Below are positions 38,101 through 58,318 of a DNA stretch of 64,000 nucleotides, piece by piece (the stretch's first letter is position 1; each line of letters starts with the position of its first letter). The translations under genes and the position numbers were made by a program. Origin of the DNA: Mytilus trossulus (Eukaryota); contig NC_086376.1 in NCBI RefSeq assembly GCF_036588685.1, positions 3,782,001-3,846,000 on the forward strand. The letters run 5' to 3'. The notes below the pieces were generated by a model. It worked only from the letters and a program-made list of their open reading frames with translations, had not been told where the DNA came from and did not search any database.

Positions 38101-39425
38101 TATTTATTATTATTTTAAAGTGTTCTGTAACCTGTGACAAAGGAGAGAGATCACGTGACGTGTTGTGTATTGACACAGATAACCGTGAGGTGAATGCCTG
38201 TGATATTACCATGAAACCAAGCAACTCAGAGGAATGTGGGACTAACCCTTGTAATAGTTATACAGATCCTTCGGGTGAGTAACATGTATTTGGTTAGCAT
38301 CTTGAAATGTAGTATGTATCTCCAAGTTATTAAGATATTTTTAAAAGAGCTTTTAAGATATTTAACATAACGGGTGCACATATCGGAGCAGAACCTGCTT
38401 GTCATTCTAGCCTTTGAAATCACTGCAGTCACAGTGGTGTTTCTGTTGATAGATTTTAGTTTTCTAAGTTGTGAATTGTGTACACTGTCTTATCGTCGTC
38501 TAGCATTTATGTTTCTTTGGGGAGAGGATTTTTGCGTTGTAACTTTTCTAGGTTTGTAAGTTTTGAATGTTCCCTGGTATTTGCCACCTCTTTCTTTGTT
38601 TTTTATAAATCTATAAATTTTCCATCGGAACATTTAATACAGCAATAAAATCATATTAGTTTCAATCACTGACATATGTGCATGTTGACTTCCTCGATGA
38701 CTTGAAATCCACCTGCAGTAGTATATATATAATTTACAAATTTGATTCGTCAGAAAGACTTTTCTGGTGACATTATCAATGCTACAGGAATATACTGAAC
38801 TATTTAATCTGTTATAAAATTCAATGCATACTAAATATATGCATATTTTGGTTTTGCCCCTTCCAAATGAAGGTAAATAAAAAAAATAAAGCAACAGTTT
38901 TTTCTATCTTTTGTAATCATTAAATTTCATACAACAACAAAAAAGACAACGCCATGGGTAAAAATCAAAAGACTAACAGACAAATCACAGTACAAAAGAC
39001 ACTACATAGAAAATTAAAAACTAAGCTACACAAACCCAACCAAAATACTGGGGGTGATCTCAGGTGCTCCGGAAAGGGTAGTAAGCAGATTCTGCTATAC
39101 ACGAATGTCGAATTATGAAATAGACAAACACGCGAATAAAATGGTAAAAATCGACTGAATTCCTGACAAATGAGACCAGGTGTGTCGACATAAAAATAAG
39201 ATCTTACTCGCTATGTTCACATCTTTTTTGTGTAATTTCTACGTTATACAATGTTTCAAGGTCAGATGCATTACAAAACATGTATTGTAATAGAAGAAAA
39301 CATTTTGTTTTACAGAAAGATGTGAAGATACATATCCAAACTGTCCATTAGTTATTCAAGCCGGAATGTGTAAGCATGACGGATACAGGGCAGTCTGTTG
39401 TCAATCGTGCCTGTCAAACAATTGA
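13995..39425 (+). CDS. ADAMTS-like secreted matrix protein (THSD4/ADAMTSL2/4/6-type architecture), spliced gene, 951 aa from these exons
   Basis: Exons 13995-14122, 24607-24664, 25643-25745, 26207-26337, 29467-29671, 30121-30293, 32221-33148, 34649-34772, 35336-35540, 36052-36240, 36873-37037, 37590-37772, 38121-38274 and 39316-39425. All have AG/GT boundaries and matching phases, and together they give 2856 nt in frame. Domains are TSP1, Cys-rich, spacer, low-complexity insert, 6 TSP1 and PLAC. No metalloprotease domain was seen. Confidence 0.9.
14620..15480 (-). mobile_element. Degenerate Penelope-like element fragment (same family as 45516-46230)
   Basis: The reverse strand contains FRYIDN and [11 protein letters not shown]-like segments and the shared 3' sequence. 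Confidence 0.8.
19116..19457 (+). mobile_element. HINE/pearl-like non-autonomous element with (GACG/GACA)n microsatellite
   Basis: aagaatgtgtc start, core repeat, gacggacg microsatellite, 3' short palindrome and ggcataaaaa end. Confidence 0.65.
20513..22047. mobile_element. Non-autonomous TIR DNA transposon, 1.5 kb
   Basis: Perfect 25-bp TIR aaacgtcgcacgatactggtgttac, flanked by CTTTG on both sides. Confidence 0.88.
22618..23190 (+). repeat. Copy of the Penelope-associated 3' repeat
   Basis: Reverse complement of ~2605-3150; partial copies at ~360-500, 10490-10720 and 24075-24285. Confidence 0.8.
24607..24664 (+). CDS. ADAMTSL exon: end of first TSP1
   Basis: [19 protein letters not shown]; tttcag / gtgagt. 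Confidence 0.85.
25643..25745 (+). CDS. ADAMTSL exon: Cys-rich module
   Basis: [18 protein letters not shown]…YRWLPY, resembling the ADAMTS FRxxQC…WxPY motif. Confidence 0.85.
26207..26337 (+). CDS. ADAMTSL exon: Cys-rich module
   Basis: [14 protein letters not shown]…INGTTC…SVCVEGVCH. Confidence 0.9.
29467..29671 (+). CDS. ADAMTSL exon: Cys-rich end / spacer start
   Basis: [27 protein letters not shown]…[17 protein letters not shown]…NYL. Confidence 0.92.
30121..30293 (+). CDS. ADAMTSL exon: spacer domain
   Basis: [13 protein letters not shown]…[13 protein letters not shown]…[13 protein letters not shown]. Confidence 0.92.
31048..31471. repeat. 71-bp minisatellite, 6 near-identical units
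   Basis: Unit starts at 31048, 31119, 31190, 31261, 31332 and 31403. Confidence 0.95.
32221..33148 (+). CDS. ADAMTSL large exon: spacer end, N/R/Q/D-rich repeat insert, start of TSP1 #2
   Basis: Lies within ORF 32170-33168. Reads [14 protein letters not shown] … ([12 protein letters not shown])n … [18 protein letters not shown], with acceptor tttcag and donor gtaatt. Confidence 0.9.
32539..32718 (+). repeat. Coding 18-nt tandem repeat (hexapeptide Q[D/E][S/R]NRN x9, plus degenerate copies)
   Basis: caagat/gaa tcg/aga aatagaaac/t units read directly. Confidence 0.9.
33222..33790 (+). repeat. Interspersed repeat family (gattgccaatgagacaact…)
   Basis: Inverted full copy at ~56712-57270; partial copies near 7125, 7965 and 57392-57630. 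Confidence 0.8.
34649..38274 (+). CDS. ADAMTSL exons encoding the C-terminal TSP1 array (34649-34772, 35336-35540, 36052-36240, 36873-37037, 37590-37772, 38121-38274)
   Basis: Repeated W..W..CS.TCG.G.R.R.V.C motifs, with canonical splice sites and phases. Confidence 0.92.
36495..36670 (+). pseudogene. Degenerate intronic duplicate of the PLAC terminal exon and start of the 3'UTR
   Basis: Aligns to 39316-39487 and reads [27 protein letters not shown]. Two Cys are lost and there is an in-frame TAA just upstream. Confidence 0.8.
39316..39425 (+). CDS. ADAMTSL terminal exon: PLAC domain and stop
   Basis: [36 protein letters not shown] shows the 6-Cys PLAC pattern. Confidence 0.9.
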
Positions 39426-42065
39426 AATGACACAAAACTGCCTTGATTTAGATATGGTCACCTGAAATCTATAAACAATGATAAAATATGAAAACGGGTA
39501 AAAGACTAAATGGAATTTACAATGATACAACAGTTGATGGTCTATTGTTTGGCTGTAAAGAACAGTTGTATTTGATATTTGTTTATTTACATGTATTTAA
39601 TGTTTTATAGTATTGCCAAAAAATCTGACCGTTGGTCATTCAATTTGATGAAATGCTGTATAAAATATAAACATTGTTATATAACTATTGAATGATATAA
39701 AGAGAGAAACGTACTAGAATGGAAGGGGACGTGACAAACATTGCCAAAAGAAAAAAGACACGAACTCGGTTCAACACCCAAACGTAATCATATTTAAATG
39801 CAGGCAGCATTATGTATTTATGCTTAATTCAAAATTACTCATTTAAAAGTGCCTTTTATTTCAAATATCGTCAGAATAACTAGTTAAGTACCTGCGAATG
39901 CTCAACTCTCTTTGCAAACAAGATAATAGAATTTCAAAATTTATTAATCAAATATATCTTTTTTCTTTTTACAATTCATTTGAAATATATGTATATGAAA
40001 TGATATCTGTTTATTCTATACGTTCATGCTATGTACAATTAAACCTTTATTTATGCCTCATAACGAAGTCTTAAAACGTACATTTGGTGTTTCTCTAAAC
40101 GTCAAATAACAGCGTTCGTATTCTGAAACGTAAATCAATGTTCATTATTTATAACGTCTATGTATAAAACAGAGGTGAAAAATACCAAGGAGACATTCAA
40201 AATACATAAGTCGAGATACACTGGCAACGCCATGGCAAAATAAATGAGAGACTAACAAACAGATAACATGTTAAAGATAAACACTACATAGAAAACTAAA
40301 GCGTGAGCGACACAACACGACACTTGAACACAGATACCAGATCCTGCTCCACTAGTGGCACACGTCGTTTGACTCATGGTAAGGACACATTATACGAAAC
40401 GTCTCTTTTAAAGTTATCACGATCGAGGAGGGGACGACGGGATTGGAGATCAGAAAGTTTGAATACATCGATGGTCCTCGGTGACACCGATAATACATAA
40501 CTGTCAAACAAACTCGTGATAGCTTTTTTAGCTTTTTGTGATAGAATTGAGAATGGAAATGGGGTTTGTGTCTATAGGACAACAACTCGACCAACGAGCA
40601 GAAAAAAGCGATTGCCACATGTTGTGTGTCCACTTTGGGTATTATGTTTCATAACTATATCATCAACCTGTGAGTTTCTTAAACAAATTACAAAAAAAAG
40701 TTAAAAAAAGGTGGACCATTTTCTGCTAACGTAGATGTTAAAACAAACAACATATTATTCGGCCGATTTAGATATACTAGATCTGCAGATATAAGATTCT
40801 GTAATATGACTTTGTGTTGTTTGTTAGTAACTATATTTCACATTTTGGAGATTTGTATATGAATATTACCGTGCTACATTTAGTTATATGAATATCATCT
40901 TTTGCCATTTGTATATGTTTTATTTGCATGTTAATGAATTGTACAAAATGTAAGATATTGCTTTGTCATCAATAAACTTAACGTGTAGATGTATTTTTAT
41001 ATTTATTTCAAAAGTTATTTTTTTTATATATTTATTTACCCAATGACTAATTTTGATCATATGTAATTGCAATGAAAAGATACATAAGTCATGTGTGAAA
41101 TACAATTCACTGTTTTCAACAAGAGTTATTACCCATTTCTCGTGAAAATATAATAGTGCAGTTTCTAAAAAAAAATGTATATATCAAGGACAACAGTAGT
41201 TTACCGAATTTCAAATCTCGCGAATCCACTTGGTATAAACAAATAGGATACTATAAAGCTGACTGAATCGTGTCTGCTACTACAGGGGCGACACTTTTTG
41301 TGCATCTACAAAGAAACGTCTCTTGTGAAACATGCATCACGTACCATGCGGATCAACACTTCGAAGAAAAGTCGCAAATGGGAAAAAGACTTAATCTGCT
41401 TGTTTATTTAAGTTAATTTCAACTGATCTTGTTGAATTAAGAAGGACATAGCATAACTGGCACTACTTCAATTAAAATATTAAAGAGTATGTAATGAATT
41501 AACGGTACCAATTGTTTTGTACCAGATGTGCAATTTAGCCATTAATGTCTCTTTAAGTTCAAATTTGTTCAAATTTTACAAAAGTTTATATTCTTAAACT
41601 AGTTTGTTGATAAATGAGTCAGTCCCACGATAAAACATTGTGATTGCTTTATAACACTTGATACTCTCAGGAGCATACATGGCTCAACTTGATCAATCAT
41701 TAAGAATATAAAATGGTCATCATTTTCACCATTATACTACATGTAGTAACATAGCTATATTTTGTGCAATGTCAATTTCATCATGGAGAACTTTTTCACC
41801 AATCAGGGGTTCTTAAAGGATGAAACTAATTTTGTAATTAGTATTACAATTTAAATAGCTATATGTATTAAATTAAGTTGCAGTATAAAAACAATATTAG
41901 GTAGAACTGAGCTCTTCACCAGTTTTGCACGGAATACAAAAAGTTTATATTTTTCTGACATTGGCCTGATATTGTATATCTATAGGATGCTATTTGAAGA
42001 TTTCGTTGAAAATTTAACCTATCAAGTAATATTTGCATGTCTTCTTAAAATGTTCAATACCTTTG

Positions 42066-42659
42066 TTAATCAACTGGTTGACCTAACTTGTGTATTATCT
42101 CTTGCATGATTTGGTGGTCAGCGTTAGAAAAATCTATTGCATATCCTAATCTAAGAAATGCTTTCATGATTTTTTGTTTAACACATCCAGTTTCCATGAT
42201 ATCGTAGTTAATTATGACAATTTGTTTGGAATAGGATCTGTCGTCTCTATAAGTATTCCAATTTAGTTTCCATTCGAGGTTTGCATAGTGATCTTCCAAA
42301 TATGTATCCGACAGTACAACAATAAAAGACTTGCATTTTGAAATAACTTTTCGAATTTCTACTTCGCGAATCGCCCCTATTTCAAAATCGCGACATGGTA
42401 AAAAGAGTTTATAACCTTTGGCTTCTAAATGTTTTATCAAATCTTCTACAACCCATTTCCGAATAATTTCATTGTTGTCGTCAAATGATAAATATGCATC
42501 ATAGCATATAGAGTTGTAGTCTATTTCAACAAGTTCATTGATTCCACATGTATAGTGAAAGGATATGTCATTTAATCTTCTAGATTGTTGTTGCCTTGAG
42601 AATAGCAACACTTCATATTTGAATTGATAACACAGGTATGATGCTATTGTGTAAGCCAA
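42066..42659 (-). pseudogene. TLR C-terminal piece: TM end and intact TIR domain ORF
   Basis: YDAYLSF (box 1), GYKLFLPCRDFEIG (box 2), SFIVVLS and LEW motifs. Confidence 0.9.
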
Positions 42660-43935
42660 AAAAGTGTCCCATGAAATTGTGTCCTCTAGAACATTATTTC
42701 ACAGTTCAGCTGTGAATTTTTGTTCATGGGACAAAATATCACATTTGTTAACCATAAAATAGTGTCTCCCTTAGTGAAACATTGTCCCTAATACTTGTAC
42801 ATAATTTCATGGATGATTTATAAAAGTATATCACAAAGGACAATATTTCATAGTGTAGCTATTTTTTTCTGTCCCTATAGAAGGGAAATAATTTAGAAAT
42901 CATTCAAATGTTTTAATCAATTAGTTAAATCATAATTGAAAATTAGATAAAGACAACACAGATATGAACAAAAATGGAAAGTGATGAATATAAACAGCTG
43001 TATAATTATGTGTCTTATGGTCAATTTCCTCCAGAATTAATAATGATAGGAGATCATTGAGAAGGAAGGCAAAGCAGTTTCAAATTAAAAACAATGAAAT
43101 GTATTATATACATGTTGACAAAAAAACCACAAGAGCAAACATTAAAACTTGTAATACATAAAGACAAATTAAAACCAGTGTTGTATTTATGTCATAATGA
43201 GAGTGAATGTTATTCCTGACATTATTGATTTTGTTAAAAAGGATTATTCAAAGATGTTTAAACAATAGACCACTTTCGAGTTCATCCGTCACCAGAAAAA
43301 ACTCGTCAATTATATGCGCCTTTATGACGTCATTTACCAGATAGAGGGGGTCGCCTGTATCCCTGCACTATTAACGTTCTTCAAGCGTCTTAGTGATCGT
43401 CATTGTGCAGGATAAACTAGAATTTATGGTTGTTTTGTAGGTACTTAATGACAATTCCCATATTAAATGACAGCAATGCTGATTGTCAATTTTGAGAATT
43501 CAATTTGCAGAATATTTCGTACAATATAGAATTATAGTTTTCCAACCACTCGCTCAACATTGGAATGGAAGTGATGCCGCCCCTAAACGCACAAATGATG
43601 TTCACTAAAACCAGATTTTTTGACGGAAACACATCGGACTCGAAAGTTGTCTATTCATAGATACCTATTGTTTATTTAAATACAAATGTCAATTTAGTCT
43701 TATTATTTTTTGTAAAATAAATTTTGTAGAATTAGACAAGACTTTTATGCAATATGGACATGATTTCACTATGAAAAAATGTCCAACGAAGGTCACAATA
43801 GTATCTCTTGTCAAGGGACACTTTTACATAGAGGTGGACAATATTTTATAATAAAATTATGTCCTGGACCAAATTTCATAGATCATATCTATGAAATTGT
43901 GTCCATGGGACATAATTTCATGGGGGACATTATTT
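42660..43935. mobile_element. Non-autonomous TIR DNA transposon inserted in the TLR TM-coding region
   Basis: Imperfect TIRs aaaagtgtcccatgaaattgtgtcc / ggacataatttcatgggggacattattt with subterminal tgtcc/ggaca repeats. Removing the element restores GAIVG(F)LAYTIA. Confidence 0.8.
43264..43655. mobile_element. MITE nested in the TIR element
   Basis: 18-bp TIR aatagaccactttcgagt / actcgaaagttgtctatt with 1 mismatch. Confidence 0.75.
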
Positions 43936-44785
43936 AATCCTACAATTGCTCCAAATATAAAAACTCCTATCGTGATAATATTCAAAATCTTTTGTTCTAT
44001 GTTTTGATCTTCGCCGCACAGATCAGATTTTGAAATAAGAGCAGCATTAATGAAGCTTTTGTGTGTTTCACATGTTATTTCGTTGTATGAACAGTTAATT
44101 ACATGCTGTCTCTCTAACCAAAGCTTGATCCATATCATGCTGCACGTACATTCTATAGTGATTTTGCCAAATCTAATGACACATGGATCTTTTAACAGGA
44201 GTTCTTTGTGCAACATTTGGATACGATTGTTTCTGAGATCAATAAAGTCCATATTTTGTATAATTCCGTATATTGAAGAATCCGTATTGAAAATGAAGTT
44301 GAAGGATAAATCATTTCTTATTGTTCTTTCGAGGTATTCGTGCTTTTTGAAAAATGTTATTCTGTTGTGTCTTAGGTCAATGTCTAGACCAGACATGTCA
44401 GGAACTACATGGGGCATACTAATATACAGTTGTGATGTGCAATTCACCACAACCCTATTTTGGGAAGGTTGATCAAAACAGTTACATCTATGAGGACATT
44501 TTTCTTTTTCTGTTATGTTGCAAATCAATAGGTCTGCAGTATGGGTTTTCATACTAAACAATCCTAGACTAAAGCCCTTTAAATGAGGTGGATGGACACA
44601 TTCAGACAAACCCAATATATAATACTGGTCCATAGCTTGGGAAGCCATAAGTATTAACCAAGTATTCATCCAACATTTTACAATCGCATATCCATGTATT
44701 ACCTCTTACATCCATTGTGTATCTGAACGCAGTTGTCATTGCATCTTCAGCAGAAAATCCCAAAGTAATATATATTACGTACATG
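43936..44785 (-). pseudogene. TLR middle piece: LRR-CT, LRR-NT, LRRs, LRR-CT, TM start
   Basis: ORFs 44602-44865 and 43857-44669 joined by a frameshift; includes IDLRHNRI, IDLRNNRI and CTCSMIWIKLWL. Confidence 0.88.
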
Positions 44786-44790
44786 GGGGG

Positions 44791-44837
44791 ATACAACGTT
44801 TCCGGAAAGTACGGATTCAACATACAGATATATAACA
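44791..44837 (-). repeat. Truncated 3' LTR (47 bp), preceded by the polypurine tract at 44838-44846
   Basis: 47/47 identity to 53038-53084. Confidence 0.85.
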
Positions 44838-45515
44838 TCCCCGCCCAAAAATTAAAAATTCCCATATTTTTCGAAAATGTTGAATTCGTACTCCAAGAAG
44901 AAAAAGATTCAAAATTTCATATAGAACAATACAACATACAAAATAACAGGCACCTTTAAACTTCATCATCTATTAATTTCCCATGTTTCACAGACATGTA
45001 AATACACATACATATGACCAAATGCTAGTTACTCTCTAACTTCAACATAAATATGATGTGGCGAAATCTTATAAAATATAGCATATTAACATTTACTGAA
45101 TTTTAGTGTGCTTGCTAAAAAGTGATTGATATACAGTACGAGATTAGATTCAGTGGAGTCCCTACTCCTACTAATGGTTAGATACACCTTATAATGAATA
45201 AAATTTATAGGTTACACTATGAGGGAAAAAAAATAATCTACTATTGCGCCAACTTTCATGGTACCATCCCTATCATACACAGATTCTCTCGATAAAATAA
45301 AACAATAAAGTGATACAAATAAATTTCAGCAGAACAAGACTATCAACTAGGGTTTATTTCTGAGTCATCTCTAATGCACCACTATCACACAAATCAGATT
45401 TCCTTTTCTTACTGTGCACAGACAAATGGAAAATTTAAATGCTAGGATTTCCATCAAATCAGTCATACATAATGTTCGTTATCATACCAAATCAATTCTT
45501 CATCAATCTTTATCT

Positions 45516-46230
45516 TCTATCCCATCGAATTGGAGATAAAGGATACTACAGATACAGTTAAGTCGGCTTCATATCTTGACTTACATCTAGAAATTGACAA
45601 TGAGGGTCGGTTGAAGACAAAACTTTACGACAAAAGAGATGATTTCAGCTTTCCAATTGTGAACTTTCCATTTCTAAGTAGCAACATTCCAGCAGCACCT
45701 GCATACGGGGTATATATCTCCCAATTGATGCGATATTCCCGTGCTTGCATTTCCTATCATGATTTTCTTGATAGAGGGTTACTACTCACAAGGAAGCTAT
45801 TAAACCAAGAGTTCCAAATGGTGAAGTTGAAATCATCCCTTCGTAAATTTTACGGACGCCATCACGAGTTGGTTGACCGTTATGGAATAACCGTTTCACA
45901 AATGATATCGGATATGTTCCTTACGTCGTAACTACAATCCCCTTCCCTTTCATGAATTTGACCTACCGAATTAGACTATTTACCGGATTTGTAATCACAT
46001 AAGCAACACGACGGGTGCCGCATGTGGAGCAGGATCTGCTTACCCTTCCGGAGCAAATGAGATCACCCCTAGTTTTTGGTGGGGTTCGTGTTGTTTATTC
46101 TTTAGTTTTCTATGTTGTGTCATGTGTACTATTGTTTTTCTGTTTGTCTTTTTCATTTTTAGCCATGGCGTTGTCAGTTTGTTTTGGATTTACGAGTTTG
46201 ACTGTCCCTTTGGTGTCTTTCGTCCCTCTC
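45516..46230 (+). mobile_element. 5'-truncated Penelope-like element (RT thumb and 3' region) nested in the Gypsy 3' region
   Basis: ELEIKDTTD…SYLDL…[24 protein letters not shown]…YGVYISQL, with no C-terminal GIY-YIG before the stop. Confidence 0.85.
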
Positions 46231-46900
46231 CTTTACTAACAAGTAAATTTAAGTATCGCAGTACTTCATTTTAAAACATTAACTTCTACCTCTATGACTT
46301 TTCAAAATATTTCACATATTGAGGTATACCAAAAAAAACTAACCATTAGCAACTCAACTACTTAAAAAATACAACAATAAATCCAATAAAATAGCTTGAC
46401 TATCTAATCTAATCAACATATTTACATGTGGACCAACAACGAAAAAAATCATTCAACACAGTGAACTTTGACGGTATTTTCACACTCAGTGTATTTCAAA
46501 AAAAAATAATTAATTGATTCATTTAAATCTTTTTAGCAATTAAACAATTTACTGTCTTAAGTGAGCCAAAACATGAAAGTCTTTTCAAATGGAAACTTTT
46601 AAAAAGAAAAATTAATACTTTCTCAAAACTTTGTATGTCGTTATATTCAAATAGTTAAAATTAATACTTAAAAAATAACAGTTCTGTGACAAAAAAAAAC
46701 CAACATCTTCAATATGTGTTTGCAATAAATGATATTACTACATGTACTAATCATAAAATGTATCAATAAAATGTATCTTCAAAACAGTTCAAGTAAATTG
46801 TATCTTGTTCTGTAACTTTCGATATGCATGAGATAAATCTCACAGCAAAATATGTCTTATTCAGCCTTCTGTTTGCGATATAAATCTCACAGACATGCGT

Positions 46901-49900
46901 TTACGGAATAATCGGAGGTGGTCTCGACTTCAATAAGGCACGCGCCTTTGGTCCTAACTGATTGTCTTCGATCCAAATTGCGTTTTGCGCCGGTTCCCCT
47001 ATTAAATGCGCAAGGTAGCGAGTATTTCCATCGTGATTTTTCTTTGCTAAAAATCTTTTCACTTTTAATAATGTCCCGTCTGACGCAGAGCTTGTTTCGG
47101 TGCCTGATGTTACAAAATAATCGTCTCTGAAGCGAATAGGTTTTTGTCTCTGTCTTGTTGATCGCCGGAGATTTGGCACTTCTTGAATTACGTTATTTGT
47201 GCTAGATTGTTCACTAATCAAATTATCATGACTTGCTGAAGCAGTATCCACGATATCTTGTTTGTTTATAACACGATCCATAAAATATTCACATGGATTT
47301 GGTACACGAATATACGCTGGTTTCAAACGGTATGCACTTTTGGAATAATTTTGTTTGTATTTAGGTCCATTAACGAATAAAGATGTAGACTGTCTATTTG
47401 ATGAATGAAATACGGTCCTGCATGTTTTAGCTTAAATTTCTGACCAGCCCCTCTGGGGTCTTTTCCTAAGTACACATAATCCCCTTTTTCTAGAGACAAA
47501 TTATGAGCTTTCTGATAAGCCCTTTCGATCATTGATATTTTAGATTTTTCTGAATTTTCACGCACTTGTTTTCGAATAAATTCAAGTTTGTCAGCAAACT
47601 CTCGGATATAATTGTGATAATCTTTGGGAATTTCTGAAAATGCGGTTTTTGATACACACGATAAGGGAAATGATGGTCTTTGTCCATAGATAATCTCAAA
47701 TGGTGAATATTTTGTTCCTTCATTTACGGAATTGTTCATAGAAAAGACGATGCTTGGAATAAAATCCTCCCAATTTGTATTGTTCAACAAATACGGTGTA
47801 ATTCGCTCTGCTAATGTTCTGTGTGAGCGTTCGCAAGTTCCCAAACAGTGATGTGTAAAACTTGGTGTGAATTGTTGTTTGATATTTAAAAGTCTACATA
47901 TTTCTTTTGTGCATTTTCCTATCATCTCGGATCCATGATCGCTAATTAGAGTATCAAAAACACCAAACTGAGTGATTATTTTATAAAGTGCATGCGAAAC
48001 AGTAATTGGGTCGGAATTTGGTATAGGCTCTGTAAAAATAAACTTGCTAAACATATCGACTGCAGTACACACGTAACTGTTGCCTGACTAAGACACTGGA
48101 ACAGGACCAAAAAGGTCAATTTCCCAAACTTGAAAAGGACGAATTGGAGTTTGAAAAGCAACAATGCCGGCTTTAGTCTTTCTCGTAGTCATCTTACGAC
48201 ACTGGCAAGCATGCCAAGATTTTATGAAGTCGGACACTTTTCCTGCTAAATTTGAAAAATAATAATGTTCCCTTATCAAATCTACTGTATGCTGAATCCC
48301 GCCATGGCCTCCAAGTGGTGAATCGTGGTAAAGCGAAATAATTGTTTTTACGGCTATTTCAGGTAATGCAAGCTGATACTGACAAAATTGTTGTGTTCGC
48401 TTAGATCTTGCGACTCTAGTGTGAAAAAGCAAATCATCGAATAACAAAATTTCTCCTGATTCAAGTAGAACTTTACGGGCTAGTTTTTGTGATTGTGGTA
48501 AATCACCATTTTCTAAATATCGGAAAATATTGCCAAATTGCGGGTCATTAACTTGTAACTGTTTTAAACTTTTCGGACTGAAATCACAATTTCGGAAAAT
48601 TTTCATCGATTCTATTTTCTGTTGGACAGTTTGCTCATCGGAAATAAAATTAACATCTGACGAATCGTCTACAGTTGCCGATACTATGCTATCACTTTCA
48701 GGGATATTTGATGAGCTTAATGCAGATTGGCTCGTTTCGACGTTATTTGTAATAAATTGACTTGCTTCGCTTGAATTGTTCATCATAAGGTATTCATCAC
48801 TTGTTTCACCTTTATCGTAAGATTGGACAGAATGTTCTCTTTCGGAAACTTTTGTAGTTGAGTCGGAAATGTCAGACGCCATCGGTTTTTCGACTATCGA
48901 TATGGGTCGATTCATGCGAATTCGTTTCTTAGTAAATTTGCGTTTAACACAATCATCATTTTCCTCGGTATCGCCATCATATTCAAGGTCTGTTTGTTTG
49001 AAAGATTCACTGACTGGCCTACTAAACAAATTTTGCAAAATATCAATATTATTCAGCTGTAGCTCGTCAGTGTCACTTGATTTGTCACTACACAATAAGT
49101 TGGTAAAAGGTATGCCATTCGGAGTAATAATATTTCCGACATTTTCGGTGTGATAGGGAAAATATGGATCAATCTGGTCCGGACTTTCAAAACCTGTTGT
49201 TGACGATTTGTTAGACGCACGGGACAGAGCGTCGGCGACTTGCATGTCTTTACCCGGTTTATATCTCAATTCAAAATTAAACTGCTGTAATATGGCAATC
49301 CATCTTTCATAGATTGCTCCTTTTAACTGTTTTTGAAAAAGTGGCTTAAGTGCTTGGTGATCGCATTCAACTACGAATTTTTGTCCCCTTAAATACATTG
49401 AACAGTCTAATATTGCTGTTACCATACCAAGAATCTCCAATTTTGTGGGACCATAAGACCTCTGCCATTTACTTAGAGACTTTGAACCAAAACGAATAAC
49501 ACGCAATTCTTCACTAGAATCATCCATTGGGTGTTGTTGATATAACATATATCCTATTCCTTTACACGATGTGTCAACTGCAAGGTAAAACGGCAGGTCG
49601 TACTTCGGAAACGCAAGAACTGGTGAGTTTGCTAGTAATGTTTTAACTTTCTTAAAAGCCTGTTCCTGTTCGATTCGCCATTTAAGTTTTACAGATTTTT
49701 TCAGTAACTTGGTCATTGGGTCAACTTCCGCACTAAAGTTTTGTATGTACTTTCGAAACCAGTTAAAAAGTCCAATGGCTCGCCGTAAATCTGTAACCGA
49801 TGTTGGCGATGGCATATCTAGTACTGCACTAACACGATCGGCGGGAGGTTGAATTCCATCTTTTGATATCAGATGTCCAAGAAAAACGCAAGAACTTTGT

Positions 49901-51597
49901 GCGAATGAACATTTCTTCGGTCCGAGCTTTAATCCGGCAGTGGCAAGACGATTGAAAACTTCATTTAAATCACCAATATGATCCTCAAATGTTTCAGAAA
50001 CTATCAGTATATTGTTCAAGTAACATAAACAAGATCAAAATGTCAAGCCTTTCAAAACTTTGTCCATTAATAGCTGCATGGACGCTGGAGCAGAACTTAA
50101 ACCCATTGGTAAACGGAGAAATTTATACGATCCAAAACAAGTGTTAAACGCAGTATATCGTTGACTTTCCATTGAAATAGGTAATTGGAAAAATCCAGAG
50201 CTCAAATCTATTGATGTAAGAAAAACTGGTTTTCGGTCAGAAAAAGATTCGGTTAAGTCTTGTAAATCTGGTATTGAATACCGGAAGTCTTGACATTGAC
50301 TATTTAAGTACCTAAAGTCACAACAAAATCTGAACTGAGACAAACTTGTAGATTTATTCATTGAAGTGTTTTTGGATTGAGGTCTCGTTCTTTTAGATAC
50401 AAGAACTATCGGACTAGTAATCGGTATATCTTCCGTTTCTTGAACCGGTGAAATAATGCCCTGTTTTAGTAATTCATCCAAGTGATCACGTAGTACATTT
50501 TTCTTGTCCGGTGACAATCTATACGATTGTTGATGCTTCGGTTTAAAGTCTGGTTTTAAGCAAATGTTATGTTTAACAAGTTCTGTATATCCTAACCTTG
50601 GATTTTCATCGGTAACAAACAAATCTTTATATTGAATTAAAAATTGTGATATTTGCCGCTGCTCATCGGTTGATAAATGTTTCGGCAATTCAAAGTTTGA
50701 CAAAAACTTGGACTCTGTTTCCTTACCTGAATTGTGACTACTTTTATCTAATTGTACATTTTGAACAAAGTGTTTGTCTTTGTCATCTGCATTGATCAAC
50801 ATGTAATCTTCCGTGAACGGTTCAAAACTAGCAATAATGTCTCCACGTGAGATAAATATTTGGTCATTAGTAGGATTTAATAACTTGATCGGAACAGTTT
50901 TATGACTATTTACAGTTACAACGGCTTTTGAAATTAGAAGTCCGCTTTTCAACAAATGAGAACTATTCTGACACATTCCTGTTTGTCCCTGTAGAATAAA
51001 GTTTGCCACTTTACCCCATATCAAAAGTTCAGAATTTGGATCTACAGTAACATGCTTTTGTAATTTTATTTTCGCTGTTTTATTTGAGACAGATAAACTA
51101 CTAAAATCCAATACAATTTTCTTTGAAATTAAGTAACTCGTACCAAGAATCAATGGATGTGAAGATTGAGTTAGAATATATGTATGTATCCAATGCTTGC
51201 CCTGTGGCACTTGTATTTTGACGGTACATTTGCCAACAATATTAACGGACTGGTTATTCGCCAAAACTATTTTCTCTGATACCGAACATATCGAAGTTTT
51301 ACAAGTGTCAGGCAAAGAATCATAAAAACTTTTAGAAATAATGTTTATTGAACTTCCAGAGTCTACAAGTGCAGCGACAGATATGTGATTGACCTTGACG
51401 GGCATATGAATAAATTGAGATTTGAAACTAGTTAAATTTTCATCAGTAAATTCGCAGTCTTCAGTATCAGTGGTATAATTAACATAGTTTAGTTCTTCAC
51501 GTTGACGACTTTGAGGCGGACTCCTTTTTCTGGCACCTATGGATGAACGCCCGGAGGAGCGTGCCCTATGACCCCCGGGTTCGACTGGTTTCCCGGA
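46901..51597 (-). pseudogene. pol: Gypsy Pol (PR-RT-RNaseH-IN-chromo-like), disrupted
   Basis: Protease LVDSGS. RT has FCCDFRYLN, IDLSSGFFQL and LPMGL, with YLDD read as YLNN. RNase H has AVDTS, CDHQAL and ADALSR. IN has an H2C2 remnant and DDE (IDLFGP, SDHGSE, ERSHRT). Stops at 50035 and 48088, frameshift near 47325. Confidence 0.92.
51532..51594 (-). promoter_or_regulatory. gag-pol -1 ribosomal frameshift signal (G GGA AAC plus stem-loop/pseudoknot)
   Basis: Slippery heptamer at 51594-51588 in the gag frame. The pol frame is -1 and opens at 51597. A downstream stem cccggggg/cctccggg has loop ggcac complementary to downstream gtgcc. Confidence 0.75.
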
Positions 51598-52661
51598 TTA
51601 CTATGATGGTAACACTGAAAAGCACCATGACCGAATTGCTGACAAAGTTGACACTGCGTAGTTGGACTTATTTCACCGTGACCATTCCATTTGCAATTTG
51701 CTCGATAATGACCAGGAGCCTGACAATTAAAGCATGTTTTTTGTCGGTTATTTCCTGCCTGACCTGAAAAGTTATTGTTGTAACGAGGGTTGTTGTAACG
51801 AGGTTTTTGATATTTTGGAGGCATTTCTGGTTTGATATCGGTACTTTGTGATTTTAATTCTGATAATGCTTTTGTGAGCTCTTTAACTTGGTTTTGTAAA
51901 TCTTGAACCGCATTATTATCATTAGCAACCATTGGCTTAGCAGCTGCTACACAAACTTCATCATTCTTCCTATACCCATAGGCTTCGCCCATTTTAGCTG
52001 CAGCCAACGCACTAACACTGTCTTTATGTGTACCAGCCCTAAAAAAAAACGCAAGCTGTTCCGATAAACCCTTGATAAACTGAGAGAGAATTTCATGGTC
52101 CTTCTTTTTCAAAATCTGAGCTTTCTTAACTATCTGTCCATAAAAATCTTCCAAAATTTGACCCCTACTTAATTTCATATTTTGAAAATTTTCGCTCTCA
52201 AGGAACACAGTTGGACTTTGCCAATCTAACTCAATATACTTTTCTTCAAAAATTGTAAGAAAATGTCTCCATGTACGTTTGCTTCCCGAATCTAGTGAAT
52301 TAAACCATGTTAATGCAGGCCCTGTTAAATTAAGGTGGAAAGCGGCAATCATTCTCTGATCATCGATATGGTCAATTTTGTGCAGAGTTGCAAATGAAGT
52401 AAATTCTTTCATAAACACTGACGTATTTTCGTGAGGATACCCCCCAAATTTGCGACAAGCAGCCAATTTTTCCATTATTGTATCTGAATCTCGAATGAAA
52501 CTTCCTGATTGATTTGCCAATGACACAGAATTATTGGGAGTGTTAATTTTAGGAACTAAAGAAAGTAATTCGTTGAATTCGGCATCCTCAGATTCGTAAT
52601 TTCGTGGCAAATAAGGGTCATGAAAAAGAGCTAGATCGTCTTCACTATCATATCGGTTCAT
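51537..52661 (-). CDS. gag: Gypsy Gag (374 aa) with two CCHC zinc knuckles
   Basis: Retrotransposon gag core (LTGPALTWF…) and knuckles CFNCQAPGHYRANC and CQLCQQFGHGAFQC. Confidence 0.9.
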   Translation of the reverse strand: MNRYDSEDDLALFHDPYLPRNYESEDAEFNELLSLVPKINTPNNSVSLANQSGSFIRDSDTIMEKLAACRKFGGYPHENTSVFMKEFTSFATLHKIDHIDDQRMIAAFHLNLTGPALTWFNSLDSGSKRTWRHFLTIFEEKYIELDWQSPTVFLESENFQNMKLSRGQILEDFYGQIVKKAQILKKKDHEILSQFIKGLSEQLAFFFRAGTHKDSVSALAAAKMGEAYGYRKNDEVCVAAAKPMVANDNNAVQDLQNQVKELTKALSELKSQSTDIKPEMPPKYQKPRYNNPRYNNNFSGQAGNNRQKTCFNCQAPGHYRANCKWNGHGEISPTTQCQLCQQFGHGAFQCYHHSNPGNQSNPGVIGHAPPGVHP

Positions 52662-52871
52662 GGGTGACGCTTCTTGTCATAGAAAATTCAAATGTAACGA
52701 GATAAATCTCACATACATAAATAAACAGTTTTATTCAAACATACAGCCATTTTCTGCCCTTATGTAATGTTGCGAGTCATACCACGTGTGTTGCACTGTT
52801 GACATTATTATCTTCATTTTAATGTTTCATATGTTCATTTTGTAATATTAGGTACCAATTGTTCGATTTTT

Positions 52872-52884
52872 GGTTCCTCCACCA
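52872..52884 (-). promoter_or_regulatory. Primer-binding site (TGGTGGAGG…, tRNA-Ala-like 3' complement)
   Basis: Directly follows the LTR terminal CA and begins TGG. The tRNA identity is an inference. Confidence 0.65.
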
Positions 52885-53084
52885 TGTGATATACCTGACT
52901 TAGGTTTGGGGGACTAAAGACGAAGTATGTATATTGCAAATAAAAAGAAGAACTTTCATATTATGATCCTTTACTTTGGATTCAAACGCCAAAAGAGGCT
53001 GATACATGTAATCATCACAACAATCATGGTTAAGACAATACAACGTTTCCGGAAAGTACGGATTCAACATACAGATATATAACA
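52885..53084 (-). repeat. 5' LTR (200 bp)
   Basis: TG…CA ends with short inverted termini; the first 47 nt are identical to 44837-44791. Confidence 0.88.
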
Positions 53085-53086
53085 TA

Positions 53087-53665
53087 CTAGCACGGAGTCG
53101 GGGGTCCCGTATGGCTTTCCATACAAAAGGTCCTGGGATGGAGTATTTTTCTAATCAACAGCATTTTCCTATATTAGTTATTAATAAAGTTGAATTCTTT
53201 GATTCGCTGTTTTACGTCATGCCCGCTAACAAATTGAAAACTGTACCTATACGCCTTATTTTTAGTATTCGTATTATTATCTTATAAAGCCTTACTGATT
53301 AAAATACTACAATAGGTAACAATTAATTATTTGACAATTTAGTAGTGTCAACCCTGTGATTATGACCCGTGTATATAGCATATCCTGAAAACACCGTTTG
53401 GTGGTGCGCCTGTCAAATGCAGAACGTACAGATAAGGTAAAAGGTAACAGATGAATATACTATTGGTATCGGTATCGGACTCGACCCGGAACTTCTTAAT
53501 TATTGGCAATATTAATTACGTGGAAAACAAAAGGGCCTGGAGTGGTGTAATTTTTAATCTACACCTTTGTACTATATTAGTTATATATAAAGTTGAATTC
53601 TTTGATTCGTCGTTTTTACGTGATGACGGCTGACAAATTGGACCTCGTAATTTTAGTATTATAGA
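53087..53665 (-). mobile_element. Non-autonomous Helitron
   Basis: On the - strand it begins A|TCTATAATACTAAAA and ends with a GC-rich hairpin then CTAG|T. It has no TSD and carries an internal ~70-bp duplication (53169-53237 vs 53572-53640). Confidence 0.75.
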
Positions 53666-54325
53666 TACATAGGAAAGTGAGTCAAAGAGTTATTCATAAT
53701 CTGAATCAATCCCCCTCCAATTGAACCATTTACGAAACCTGTAGTATTCTTCAAATTTGTAATTGTTCTTATATCGTTATTAAATACTTTTATAAAATCG
53801 AAGTAGTGTTTCAAAATTAAATCTCTAATATCAATACTCTTTATGTTATTGTATTGTACGTGTATTTTCAGAAGACTTCCTGGTCGGTATGAGAAACATC
53901 CGGGTTCTAAATACTCGATTTTGTTATACGATAATATAAGTCAATTTGCCTCAAATTAGACAGACTAGCTAGAGACGAAATGTCAATTCTTTTAATGTTG
54001 TTATCAGACAGTATCAGAATGTCGATAGATCTTAGACAGTCAAGGTTTGGTAAATACTGGATACTATTCCATGACAAATCAATGTCATTCGGGAAACTGT
54101 CAAGCGGGGCTCCGACATTTGCAAAATATTAAGTTGCTTGATGAAAACTTTGATGAACTCTTATGTTACTATATAAAGTTTCTGCTTCAAGTTTTGACAG
54201 TTAAAATATTCTTTATGTAAATACGAACCAATGAATATAACGTTTCTGCTTCAAGTTTTGACAGTTAAAATATTCTTTATGTAAATACGAACCAATGAAA
54301 TAATAAGAAAGATATATGCATTCAA
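53666..54325 (-). pseudogene. TLR 5' piece: degraded signal/N-terminus and about 5-6 LRRs
   Basis: Manual reverse-strand translation shows LxxLxLxxNxI repeats. It ends in FPMY, which joins ITLGF on the far side of the insertions. Confidence 0.8.
54172..54299. repeat. 64-bp tandem duplication in the TLR 5' region
   Basis: 54172-54235 and 54236-54299 are near-identical. Confidence 0.9.
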
Positions 54326-55910
54326 ACGTTTTCCTTAGAATGGTTGAGCTCCTTGTAAAACGATCAAAATTGTCACACAACACTGATAAAAAATGCCAAA
54401 TAAACATCGAAAAAATCAATGTTTGCTACCTGAATTTTCACATGAGCCTTTTCTTATATATAGTCTTACCTGTCTGAAAGTTTCAAAGCTATTGTCCCAG
54501 TAGAAATCTATATTAATTTTCTCCATGTCGGATATTTTTATTGACTGTACAATCGCTTGCAAGTTTACTGTAATATCACTCGGAGCATCCCTTTACAATC
54601 GCTTGGAGCTTTTCTTTTCATCGTTTGGCCAACTAGACTGCTCCGAAAGGAAGGTAACATACTTTACCTTGTTATGACTTCACGGTCCAGCTAGCAAGCA
54701 AGCTAGTCAAAGGTATAACGTTTCCTACACACTCATTGCATTTTGCTGTAATAGCTTCTAGTGGCATATGACTAATTATAACTCTTAAGAAGATAATGAT
54801 TACTACTATCTTTTCTGCCACATTCATGATCAATTTATGTTTTCCATGAAACTTTTGTCATATAAATATTTATTATAACTACTGCAATCCAATACAATAT
54901 ATGTCTGGCATGATTTTTCTCTCCTTTTCCTGTTACAATTTTTGGTATTGTCATCAATTTGTGTTTTAACCAAAATTATACACTCAAAAGAGTTGAATAT
55001 ATTTGAAGCTTTTATTTGAATTGCTGCAGCCTGCATTAGCGGATCAGGTATGCGGGGAGAGGGAGTTTTGGTGGTTGAAACCCCATTTTTTCGATTTTTT
55101 TTTTATTTTGTGGACGTTTCAGGGTGTTCAGTGGTTTGGATCCCCCTTTTGTAGAAAGGCGGGATCCGCACCTAGTCTGATATCGTCAATGATAGTATGA
55201 TGATCCGATCATTCATCTGATTTTTTTTATAGTTTGGTCTTGTGCTGTGCTAGTTTTTGAGAGAAATGAGCGCACACAGACATTTTTTGCTAGTTTTGGG
55301 GAGAAACCCTGCTAAATTCTATATGTACCTGTTTCAAGTCAAGGGCTCGTAGTTCAGTGGTTGTCGTTGGTTCATGTCTGTCAGATATGTTTTTCGTAAA
55401 TTGTTTTATCATGAATTCGGCCGTCAATTAAATTCGAAAGGTATTGATTCCTATTTTCATGTCGGGACCTTTTATAGCCGACTATAATTGCTTAAATCCA
55501 ATTATTTTTTTTAACTTTGACTATCATATCACATCTCCTTATTTTTATATTGAAAACATAAATGTGGTTTGATAAAATGTTGTTTTCACTAATAAAAATA
55601 CCAACTGTTTCGTTCGTTTGTCGGATGCTATAGTTGGTAATATTGAAAAGTTCCTGAATCGTGACATTGATACAAAGAAAATCATGTTGAAGGATTTTGT
55701 GTTTTCTCTGTCTTTCAGATAACAAGTCCTCTCCCATTTAATTTTACTGGAGCTTTTTCTACCAGTAGCTATAGTTTGTAATAAACAGTCATCTTATTTG
55801 AAATTATACCACATCTTCTTATTTTAATATCATGTTTATTGACATATACGTGTCTTTTCTTAGATCAGTGGTTAGCTACCACCATTCCACTTTCGAATTC
55901 CTTGTTATAG

Positions 55911-56030
55911 TTACCAAATTAAAAATTATTGGGTATGTGTAGATACACCATAGGAGGGGCTAAATTTCACGAAAAACTTAGTTCATCCTATGATGTATCT
56001 ACACATAGCCAATAACTTTTTTATTTGGTA
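55911..56030. repeat. Long imperfect palindrome (~45-bp arms), part of a foldback-type element
   Basis: ttaccaaat…tatgtgtagatacaccatagga / tcctatgatgtatctacacata…atttggtaa. Confidence 0.75.
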
Positions 56031-57834
56031 AATGACATGTGTCAAAGTTCACAACTGATATCACAGGAAAGAAAATGTGTTACATTGTAGTTTTTGGCTA
56101 AAAGTGTGAGGTATCTAACATACACCACATGACAATTTTTAATCTTCTGGTAAACCAATCAGAGGGTCGATTTGGAACTGTGGTGTATGTGTCGATACAC
56201 TCACACTTTGTCAATAGAAAATCAAACAAACTATGGTACATATAAAGTTACAATATACCGATCCTGTGATGAAAAATTCTTTGTTGTATTGTTCAAGTAT
56301 GTATGTCCCAAGTCAGGAGCCTCTGGCCTATGTTAGTCTTGTATTTTTTTAATTTTAGTATCGTGTTTACAATTTGGAAATAAGTATGGCGTTCATTATC
56401 ACTGAACTAGTATATATTTGTTAATGGGCCAGCTGAATGACGCCTCCGGGTTCGGGAAATTCTCGCTACATTGAAGACCTGTTGGTGACTTTCTGCTGTT
56501 GTTTTTTCTATGGTCGGGTTGTTGTCACTATGACACATTCCCCATTTCCATTCTCAATTGTATTTATTATTTTTTTAATTGCTGGTAAATAATATATTAA
56601 GTAAAATTCTAAAATGCTAATTACCCTTCCAGAGAATCTAGACTAAGTTTTCGCTGGCTGTATATGACGTCTTTATACTAAATCCATTGGATGTTGGATG
56701 TGTACACGGATTGATAGTTTAGTCTTAGATGCATGATTTTTTATTAGTTGTTAGTGGTTTTGGGCTAGCTGGTAGATAACTGCAAGTACTCTCAAATCTG
56801 TTTTTGTGTCGGGATGTATAAGTACCCGTTCACGTCCACTTGTATTTTTGTCCATCTGATGAGTTAAGCCTTTTTCAACTGATTTTTATAGTTCGTTCTT
56901 ATGTTGAACTGTTATACCACTGTCCTAGGTTAGGGAGAGAATTGAGATCCCGTTAACATGTTTAACCCCGCCACATTATTTATGTATGTGCCTGTCCCAA
57001 TTCAGGAGCCTGTAATTCAGTGGTTGTCGTTTGTTTATGTGTTACATATTTGTTTTTCGTTCATTTTGTTCATATAAATAAGGCCGTTAGTTTTCTCGTT
57101 TCGTATTTTTTGCATGGTCTTATCGGGTCCTTTTATAGCTGACTATGCGGTTTGGACTTTGCTCATTGTTGAAGGCCGTACAATGACTTATAGTTGTTAA
57201 TGTCTGTGTCATTTCGGTCTCTTGAGGACAGTTGTCTCATTGGCAATCATACCACATCTTCTTTTTTATAAGTCACCTTTTCGGTATATATAAATATTTA
57301 TTTTGTAGTATACGATGATTATTTTCATTTTTATTTAAGATTAGATTCTTAGCATATTTTGTACTGTCTTTTTTCTTTTTGTCTTTTATACTTATTTTGT
57401 GGTTGTTTGTTTATGTGTTACATATTTGTTTTTGTTCATTAATAAGCCGTTAGTTCTTTGAAGTCGTTTTACATTGTTATTTCGGGGCATTTTATAGCTG
57501 ACTATGCGGTATGGGCTTTGTTCATTGTTGACGACCGTACGGTGACCTATAGTTGGTAATTTCTGTGTCATTTGAGTCTCTTGTGAAGAGTTGTCTCTTT
57601 GGCAATCATACCGCATCATCTTTTTTATGTTTATTGTACACATTTTGTTTTTTGTCTCAGATATATTAAAAGGGTTCCTTGATAGAATCTTAATTCTCAA
57701 AATGACTGGTTTTGTGCTTATTCTCACTTCAAATACCATAGATGAATATAATAGGACAACAAGAAACAATCAATGCAATGCATATGCAATGTATTTAATA
57801 AATTTGGCCAAGCATTTCTACAGGAAAGCTCCCA

Positions 57835-58161: not shown

Positions 58162-58318
58162 CAAATTATTAGAAAACCGTACAGTTCCGTTCCCACACTG
58201 TGCTAATGATGATTGTGGATAAGTTTGGTCGAATTTGTCATATCTGTTTCAGAAGAGAAGGTTACAACATTTTACCAAAACATATTTTTAACAAGGCTTT
58301 TAAACTATTTTGATCTGA

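Follow-up and report, generated by a model that had tools for sequence, protein, structure and literature searches.

Mussels hold, to our knowledge, the largest Toll-like receptor (TLR) repertoire known in animals. According to the available part of the family survey, mussel TLRs show tandem duplication, 30% of them are under presence/absence variation, and all single-TIR mccTLRs are placed in the group SPP (PMC10279657). The M. galloprovincialis pan-genome paper leaves the role of transposons open in its available sections (PMC7653742). A limited literature search by titles and abstract starts returned no report of a transposon-split mussel TLR. The main text of PMC10279657 contains no occurrence of 'pseudogen', 'transpos' or 'intron', and its supplements may list the paralog described here, which lies in a 64,000-nucleotide stretch of the Mytilus trossulus contig NC_086376.1 (hereafter, the window). 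By domain layout alone, the gene resembles the single-TIR mccTLRs of group SPP as presented in the available part of that survey, with an internal LRRCT-LRRNT pair and one TIR domain (alignment, by eye). As far as the available part of the pan-genome paper goes, it is also similar to the dispensable genes of M. galloprovincialis in belonging to a young, expanded immune family with structural-variant haplotypes (PMC7653742), and unlike them it is present but dead; coverage-based calling would likely score it 'present'.

The closest relatives of the window copy were Mytilus 'protein toll-like' or TLR8-like entries, namely XP_071167834.1 (M. edulis), VDH88868.1 (M. galloprovincialis), XP_063431046.1 (M. 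trossulus), XP_052100721-4 (M. californianus) and CAC5369694.1 (M. coruscus). The window copy shares their domain order, and its five minus-strand pieces (54083 to 42066) are collinear with residues 148-747 of the intact proteins (homolog P0001). It was 70-90% identical to known Mytilus TLRs. Identity to the entries above was highest across the second LRR stretch (85-92%), falling to 67-85% in the middle and 69-74% in the TIR piece; a separate comparison of piece C with Mytilus TLRs gave 68-72%. Unlike these TLRs, it lacks the first ~147 residues, carries two frameshifts and five insertions, and forms a long branch of its own. In the tree of pieces B and C, this branch (0.24) was sister to the M. 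edulis, M. galloprovincialis and M. trossulus copies (95/97). As judged from distance, the window copy is not an allele of any of the listed Mytilus TLR entries. In M. coruscus, a single contig carried two TLR copies (P0011; P0013 plus P0030). The birth-and-death turnover in an expanded TLR family suggested by the first-pass annotation fits these results, as the homologs are Mytilus TLRs, for which tandem duplication and presence/absence variation are described in the available part of PMC10279657. Among metagenome contigs searched for related loci, none of 115 pattern matches was confirmed, and a viral collection gave no match for two patterns.

Table 1. Positions of the TLR pieces, inserted elements and adjoining repeat within the window
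Feature	Position	Strand	Remarks
TLR piece C	42066..42645	-	Membrane helix end, linker, TIR domain
4-bp target duplication CAAT	right 42646..42649, left 43945-43948	-	
Non-coding TIR element, Ginger-like	42650..43944	.	1295 bp, termini TGTA..TACA, degenerate arms ~130 bp
Nested high-copy element	43264..43655	.	392 bp, 18-bp TIR (17/18 match), no clear TSD
TLR piece B	43945..44768	-	LRR, internal LRRCT-LRRNT cysteine clusters, LRRs, LRRCT, membrane helix start
TLR piece B frameshift	~44665	-	+7 bp
TATA target duplication and 18-nt filler	44769..44790	-	Filler stands in for most of the 3' LTR
Ty3/Gypsy element	44791..53084	-	Pfam Retrotrans_gag, RVT_1, RT_RNaseH, Integrase_H2C2, rve
Gypsy 3' LTR remnant	44837-44791	-	47-48 bp
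PLE-like fragment	45508..46230	+	723 bp, very high-copy retroelement, nested in the Gypsy 3' region
Gypsy 5' LTR	53084-52885	-	200 bp, TG..CA
Two host/TSD bases between Helitron and LTR	53085..53086	-	
Non-autonomous Helitron-like element	53087..53665	-	579 bp, TC..CTAG
TLR piece A	53666..54083	-	LRRs corresponding to 148-285 in the 751-aa homolog; frameshift of +5 bp at ~53935
Repeat family abutting the TLR mid-element	54084..57766	+	Loci L001, L003; marks the gene's 5' loss
Partial inverted copy of the repeat	57835-58211		

The split TLR gene is real, and its pieces, their order, the junction sequences and the lesions are directly observed (Table 1). The window was compared with four of the 20 listed sequencing runs (X1, X3, X5 and X8). 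The retained TLR sequence amounts to 1824 nt spread across 12,018 nt, less than the ~2.1-kb coding region given in the first-pass annotation, and no intron interrupts it, as had been stated there. The receptor assignment was borne out by Pfam, which placed the TIR domain of piece C above the cut-off (PF01582, 2.6e-12), matched TIR_2 there as well (2.3e-11) and detected LRR_9 (2.7e-6) and LRR_8 (1.3e-5) in piece A, both below curated cut-offs on such short pieces. Against homologs that pass LRR_8, the LRR ectodomain was 73-92% identical in the LRR region. A single membrane helix lies between the LRRCT and the TIR domain; joined at the target duplication it reads GAI|ASYLC, yields a 19-mer with a mean hydropathy of 2.15 and restores the overall spacing of the homologs. 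The join proposed earlier, GAIVG to LAYTIA, is 21 nt too long (102 letters from 44015 to 42634, versus 81 in both the TSD-based join and the uninterrupted X8 contig, record 25), and its VG and LAYTI are sequence of the TIR element, whose limits had been set at 42660-43935, inside the CAAT-flanked ones. The stop codon of piece C (TAA) lies four codons upstream of the homologs' stop.

The first-pass annotation had also held that excision of the transposons reassembles the receptor in frame. The split gene and the collinearity of its pieces stand, but the frame does not: all 30 variants of that splice (3 starts x 10 cut points) stopped within 58 codons, and the TE-free frame built on the TSD-based join had its first stop at codon 58. 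The frame fails because of the two small frameshifts, which that annotation does not mention. At the +5 bp site, five gap letters were found in X8 record 25 and none in X1 record 8, and the gaps in piece B comprised 10 letters (7+3) in X8 record 25 and 7 in X5 record 19. The FPMY join abuts exactly as in the homologs (FPMY|ITLGFSA; FPMY DDLGFSA and LPMY NTLGFSA) and in X8 record 25, which has five letters from 53665 to 44764, the number predicted; the cut, however, lies at 44769/44772 and not at 44775. The segment 53666-54325, previously read as LRRs throughout, encodes them up to 54083, but 54084-54325 belongs to a repeat cut mid-element. Matching of the 5' piece and the rest confirmed their abutment and family, although similarity to known copies is higher for the 5' piece (86-92%) than for the remainder (65-85%). 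All five of the inserted elements counted earlier are present (Gypsy, Helitron-like, PLE-like, TIR element and nested 392-bp TIR element); no class is assigned to the nested one.

The N-terminal 144-230 residues of the homologs had no match in the 64-kb window for any of five homologs (best E 0.072), and neither the signal peptide nor the N-terminal region (first ~147 codons) was matched within the window. A signal-peptide-like frame at 54321 (MHISFLLF..) was rejected, as it stops after 14 codons inside the repeat. Other copies of this repeat extend ~340 bp further, and the depth in X1 was 1318 at 54148, within the repeat, versus 10-17 on the TLR. Of four candidate loci for the repeat, L002 and L004, sharing a common 20-mer only, were dropped; the copy L003 has no inverted arm. 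A Mutator-like interpretation of 54084-58161, with long TIRs and a TSD of 9 bp (7/9 match), was rejected, because the bases taken for the right TSD, and others besides them, are part of the repeat (L001, L003). The 5' junction is spanned, with 42 letters, by X1 record 8, which departs from the window at 53665, where the Helitron-like element starts. X1 has both the 5' break and the first frameshift but lacks the Helitron. We infer that the 5' loss is a deletion joining codon 148 to mid-repeat, and the 5' part could, rather than being deleted, lie beyond the window's end. With the front end lost and two frameshifts present, the gene copy is dead, and no receptor can be made from the window allele. 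RNA rows of small share provided no evidence of expression. Nesting of the TLR in an intron of its neighbour was rejected, as the ADAMTS-like gene ends near 39425 with its PLAC exon, placed at about 39294-39422.

The Gypsy domains follow the order expected on the minus strand, gag and then protease-RT-RNaseH-integrase (Pfam), the latter frame carrying two in-frame stops and one frameshift. A PBS, a PPT and the TATA target duplication are present. Helitrons insert between A and T. The Helitron-like element lies between the A and the T within the Gypsy target duplication, has no TSD, and its 5' TC and 3' CTAG are the termini described in the available part of PMC12001565. It contains an internal 115-bp duplication, and its 3' subterminal hairpin is weak (-5.6 kcal/mol, z -1.6; 12 of 200 shuffles equally good). 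The joint 45507-46231, which skips the PLE-like fragment, was seen in three of the four runs (X1, X5 and X8), and the fragment itself has a depth of ~10^6. It is 69% identical to an RT-coding fragment at 4210-4439, a related fragment (4236-4766) matched RVT_1 (E 0.0016), and the 152-aa frame of the PLE-like fragment had no Pfam or PDB match. From a resemblance, it may be Penelope-like (Naiad). Among the TEs of M. galloprovincialis, PLEs rank first in abundance (PMC8557442).

Ginger transposons have TGTNR termini and a 4-bp TSD (PMC2836005). The element inserted in the membrane helix is like Ginger2/TDD in its termini (TGTAG / TGTAA), 4-bp TSD (CAAT) and arms within 50-180 bp, and unlike it in having degenerate arms, no transposase and a target, GCAATA, that does not match the Ginger preference (CCGG or RTATAY, the latter for Ginger2/TDD) (PMC2836005). 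Neither the Gypsy-like integrase of Ginger nor any ORF of 100 aa was found inside it, and its features would class it as Ginger-like only. For the nested 392-bp element, the depth in X1 was 62,511, and X8 showed loose ends at 43264. Two X5 contigs (records 18 and 17) were identical to the window (0 differences across 317 and 685 nt), and their breaks coincide with the two CAAT copies to the letter. The TIR element is probably missing from X5, as suggested by a 4+26=30 letter overlap with no joint seen. No joint for the TLR empty sites occurred among the 15 joints listed out of 2556.

We consider it likely that the window holds a dead, intronless Mytilus TLR copy, marked by 5' loss, two frameshifts and five insertions, which probably went on gaining transposable elements after being disabled. 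The intact gene broken by stacked transposons that the first-pass annotation implied does not agree with the ~147 missing 5' codons and the two additional small frameshifts, nor with the 5' break and first frameshift of the Helitron-free X1. The copy would have arisen by duplication, likely in the blue-mussel lineage, and then likely diverged as a working receptor, mostly under purifying selection. In pieces B and C, private residues occupied 8 of 111 deeply conserved columns versus 66 of 342 others (p=0.002). Among 602 codons there was no internal stop, plus a single one close to the end, where neutrality would predict roughly 5.6-8.4 (estimated against one relative contig). Such few disabling point changes indicate that death was recent, and the window copy is likely a recently dead paralog. 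Gene conversion likely kept the 5' LRRs nearer to the sister copy than the rest. The early lesions would include the deletion to mid-repeat and the +5 bp frameshift. The Gypsy element, possibly after these lesions, would have inserted at TATA and afterwards lost the greater part of its 3' LTR, where a repair scar was likely left; it now holds the PLE fragment. Late steps would be two insertions that are likely still polymorphic: the Helitron entered the Gypsy target duplication, and the Ginger-like element the membrane helix.

The same data could be read as a null allele of a living gene, in line with the null haplotype that the first-pass annotation held possible: a transposon, most likely Gypsy, would have struck first, and undamaged alleles of this paralog would still segregate in mussels. 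The insertions appear polymorphic, with the Helitron absent in X1 and the TIR element probably absent in X5 (0 differences across ~1 kb), the few disabling changes imply recent death, and 30% of mussel TLRs vary in presence (available part of PMC10279657). We nevertheless regard this reading as unlikely, as the 5' break and first frameshift recur in X1, and no intact protein of the window paralog was found, the closest being 77% (5 of 591 candidates), 71% (2 of 202) and 70% (1 of 160) identical. This absence is weak evidence, because the searches were word-based and covered four of the 20 listed runs. Moreover, the uninterrupted X8 contig differed from the window by 7-17% and had the indel pattern of the sister paralog. 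Contig depths, which are not copy numbers, were ~34 for the window type and 73 for the sister copy in X5, and ~5 and 5 in X1.

Another reading treats piece A and pieces B and C as two tandem paralogs fused by a deletion from the Gypsy 3' LTR to just before ITLG, the 18-nt filler being native sequence of the second copy. Private residues fall from 75/455 to 6/138 across the Gypsy site (p=1e-4) and the filler holds CCC ATG TAC in frame (chance ~4e-4), encoding PMY; each is consistent with two copies having fused. The 3' LTR is cut short, piece A is 86-92% identical to edulis-complex proteins compared with 65-77% for B1, B2b and C, its branch length is 0.077 versus 0.22-0.27, and its nucleotide differences to X8 record 25 (26/360) are fewer than those of the rest (152/1141, p=0.0014). 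On the other hand, TATA occurs at either side, the pieces join with single-base precision, and the filler would add three codons that are present in none of the seven full-length Mytilus homologs aligned. The filler also ends in a 14-bp perfect palindrome across its junction with the flank (12 such palindromes occur in 64 kb), and its remaining 6-mers can be found in the LTR, a pattern like that of a templated repair scar. Divergence breaks most sharply at residue 394, not 138, B2a (9/106) is as conserved as A1 (4/49), and mammals provide documented cases of conversion between tandem TLRs (PMC2077338). AU tests did not separate the rivals. We consider a fusion quite unlikely. An assembly artefact, with repeats mis-joined into the TLR or sequencing errors read as frameshifts, is highly improbable: the region is dense in high-copy repeats and no contig of the compared runs spans all of it, but target duplications flank two insertions on both sides, X1 independently shows the 5' junction and is free of gaps at the +5 bp site, both X1 and X3 enter the TIR element at the same place (29 letters only; tool standard 31), and the +7 bp insertion, as seen in the window assembly, copies a neighbouring 7-mer.

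The dead TLR copy is thus a well-resolved but ordinary pseudogene, of the kind expected in a fast-turnover gene family. Since duplication, conversion, pseudogenisation and nested insertion are all known, its value is that of a test locus and not of a new mechanism. There is a small chance that haplotypes of the paralog still form a graded series in living mussels, running from an intact receptor through alleles with a single insertion or several to those with the full set. If so, stepwise transposon stacking would be a hidden form of immune-gene loss, scored 'present' by coverage-based surveys, and population data at a single locus would give the order of each insertion. The locus offers a base-resolved example of the death of a TLR copy, in a 'present but dead' state that mussel presence/absence surveys likely miss, and gene models and TLR counts overlook such dead copies.

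The locus is a recently dead, 5′-truncated, twice frameshifted Toll-like receptor (TLR) paralog with five insertions. It lies in AT-rich animal DNA (approximately 33% GC) with many repeats, where five minus-strand reading-frame pieces, running from 54083 down to 42066, were similar to Mytilus TLRs. Among 591 candidates, the middle piece matched five proteins, led by M. galloprovincialis VDH88868.1 (751 aa, 77%); an M. californianus TLR reached 71%, and cluster members included proteins of M. edulis, M. trossulus and M. coruscus. In tblastn, five segments of the 751-aa protein (residues 148-198, 196-285, 284-323, 312-558, 551-751) were collinear on the window. Pfam identified the TIR domain (2.6e-12), with weaker LRR matches, and alignment with homologs revealed one TIR and an internal LRRCT-LRRNT pair. 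This architecture is named SPP in mussels (PMC10279657) and is common to the window copy and mussel SPP TLRs.

The first-pass annotation had proposed that the copy could be reassembled in frame by removing stacked transposons. Its Gypsy/Helitron join and its five insertions were confirmed, unlike the in-frame reassembly and the membrane-helix join. The LRR piece ended in FPMY at 53666, and two bases separated the Helitron-like element from the first Gypsy LTR. The LTR was followed by a primer-binding site, gag, protease, RT, RNase H, integrase and a polypurine tract, the frames carrying one frameshift and two in-frame stops. The 3′ LTR retained 47-48 of 200 bp, followed by 18 nt of filler, and TATA flanked the Gypsy on both sides once the Helitron was disregarded. 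An uninterrupted relative in sequencing run X8 (contig record 25, 2170 nt) carried 54029-53665, 44764-44015 and 42634-42234 in a single contig, with 5 letters between 53665 and 44764, exactly as the removal of both elements predicted. The target sequence of the Gypsy, GTATAT (44767-44773 and 53666), agrees with RTATAY, the preference that the integrase-like transposases of Ginger2 are reported to have. Another X8 contig (record 27, 1710 nt, on 44791-53019) joined the Gypsy 3′ region to the 5′ leader (46877 to 52693); it derives from this Gypsy's family by internal deletion and is non-coding. Contigs of three of the four runs bypassed a 723-bp fragment in the Gypsy, which is therefore a separate insertion. 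From its resemblance, we tentatively label this fragment PLE-like; the label also draws on a weak RT match in a related fragment and on the reported abundance of PLEs in Mytilus (PMC8557442).

With all insertions removed, a stop was met at codon 58, and all 30 variants of the proposed recipe stopped by that codon. The frame was broken by insertions of +5 bp near 53935 and +7 bp near 44665, and in the two pieces concerned X8 record 25 had 5 and 10 (7+3) gap letters, respectively; the terminal stop at 42066 was four codons premature. The proposed GAIVG|LAYTIA join left 102 letters between 44015 and 42634 versus 81 in X8 record 25, the latter being exactly the spacing of the CAAT-based empty site GAI|ASYLC. 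The inserted TIR element had inverted ends (TGTAGG.. at 43944, TGTAAG.. at 42650), both flanked by CAAT. TGTNR ends and a 4-bp duplication are shared with Ginger transposons (PMC2836005); however, the element lacked a transposase and its target fell outside the preference reported for Ginger, so it is named only Ginger-like.

TLR homology ended at 54083, and the N-terminal parts of five of five homologs had no match anywhere in the window (best E 0.072). The adjoining sequence from 54084 is a repeat to whose middle the TLR is joined, as indicated by the depth of run X1 (1318 at 54148 versus 10-17 over the TLR) and by longer copies in two of four loci from one search (metagenome contigs L001 and L003), which belonged to the same family and extended approximately 340 bp beyond the window copy's end. 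This junction is most simply explained by a deletion; alternatively, the missing 5′ part may be located past the end of the window. A Mutator-like identity for the repeat, with a 9-bp duplication, was dropped once metagenome relatives (L001) were compared. The repeat contains a 64-bp tandem duplication (54171-54303) that neither its inverted copy (57835-58211) nor L001 shares.

Comparison with other samples covered contigs of 4 of 20 listed runs (X1, X3, X5 and X8). Over 54125-53665, X1 record 8 showed 4 differences without any gap; it carried the 5′ junction as well as the first frameshift and departed from the window at the Helitron start. X1 record 1 and X3 record 10 entered the Ginger-like element for 29 letters, which weakly suggests that those runs have it. 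X5 record 18 matched 44261-43945 with zero differences, followed by 26 unmatched letters, and X5 record 17 began at 42649 with zero differences over 685 nt; X5 likely carries the empty site, since an overlap of 4+26 = 30 letters is expected from 31-letter words. Given the X1 and X5 contigs, the Helitron, at least, is younger than some other lesions or variable among mussels, and the same probably holds for the Ginger-like element.

Identity to seven full-length Mytilus proteins was 73-92% (piece A), 65-85% (piece B) and 69-74% (piece C); the M. edulis and M. californianus proteins were 76-91% alike across all parts. In the B+C tree, the M. edulis, M. galloprovincialis and M. trossulus copies formed the sister group of the window copy (support 95/97), whose branch measured 0.24 versus 0.01-0.07 for theirs. 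Together, these values point to a duplicate that arose within the blue-mussel lineage. Three protein searches for a closer relative gave best values of 77%, 71% and 70%. Private residues occupied 8/111 deeply conserved columns versus 66/342 others (p=0.002), and no internal stop occurred in 602 codons (neutral expectation 5.6-8.4 under a rough model), from which we infer that the copy diverged mostly while a working gene and died recently. One M. coruscus contig held a whole copy (protein P0011) plus a split copy (P0013 with P0030), in line with the tandem TLR duplications reported in mussels (PMC10279657). X3 record 9, on 41934-42313 (TIR end and 3′ flank), was 9% off the window, with the sister paralog at 17%; intermediate between allele and sister paralog, it is possibly a third copy.

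Private residues were fewer in piece A (6/138) than in the remainder (75/455, p=1e-4), as were nucleotide differences to X8 record 25 (26/360 versus 152/1141, p=0.0014). Separate paralog origins of the pieces had been named as a point against the reassembly; the lower divergence of piece A bears this out in part, yet the join is exact. We lean towards gene conversion as the origin of the pattern in the 5′ LRRs, a process known between tandem mammalian TLR1 and TLR6 (PMC2077338). Fusion of two TLR copies at the Gypsy site, suggested by CCC ATG TAC lying in frame in the filler (chance approximately 4e-4), seems less likely: besides the exact join, TATA is duplicated around the Gypsy, the sharpest divergence break falls at residue 394, the filler and its flank form a 14-bp perfect palindrome at the filler end (12 such in 64 kb), and the remaining 6-mers of the filler are present in the LTR, as expected for a repair scar. 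In the first LRR stretch (54083-53937; homologs P0007/P0006), the M. edulis protein was 86% identical to the window copy versus 78% to M. galloprovincialis P0001, the two proteins being 94-98% alike outside it, which hints at conversion between paralogs.

The TLR copy and a plus-strand ADAMTS-like gene stand tail to tail, approximately 2.6 kb separating the last (PLAC) exon from the TLR stop, and the gene is a useful synteny anchor. More TSP1-like exons lie upstream in it, and the 352-codon open frame is probably one of its exons, long and of low complexity. The 898-codon frame is a young-looking non-LTR retrotransposon.

Features of the TLR locus and its surroundings (window positions)
Feature	Position	Strand	Details
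TLR piece A	53666-54083	-	
TLR piece B	43945-44768	-	
TLR piece C	42066-42645	-	
Helitron-like element	53665-53087		579 bp; TC..CTAG ends
Gypsy 5′ LTR	53084-52885		200 bp
Second Gypsy LTR, start	44837		
Nested element	inside Ginger-like element		392 bp; 18-bp inverted ends
ADAMTS-like gene, multi-exon	14031, 33103, 35319-39422	+	Pfam: five TSP1_ADAMTS exons, terminal PLAC exon
352-codon open frame	32110-33168	+	Asn/Arg/Gln-rich 18-nt repeat array 32526-32731; runs into TSP1-like exon end
Tandem units	31047-31471		six nearly perfect 71-bp units, 99% match; beside PLE-like fragment 30693-30993
Stop-free 898-codon frame	60160-62856	+	RVT_1 1.2e-21

The papers listed by keyword searches of the literature included no report of this TLR locus, which supplements may list. 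Mussels reportedly have the largest animal TLR repertoire, with 30% of TLRs under presence/absence variation (PMC10279657); the main text of that paper has zero occurrences of 'pseudogen' and 'transpos', and the description of the open pan-genome leaves the role of transposons undecided (PMC7653742). The proposed snapshot of birth-and-death turnover, possibly a null haplotype, is partly supported; the copy is a recently dead paralog carrying its insertions, some of which are likely polymorphic.
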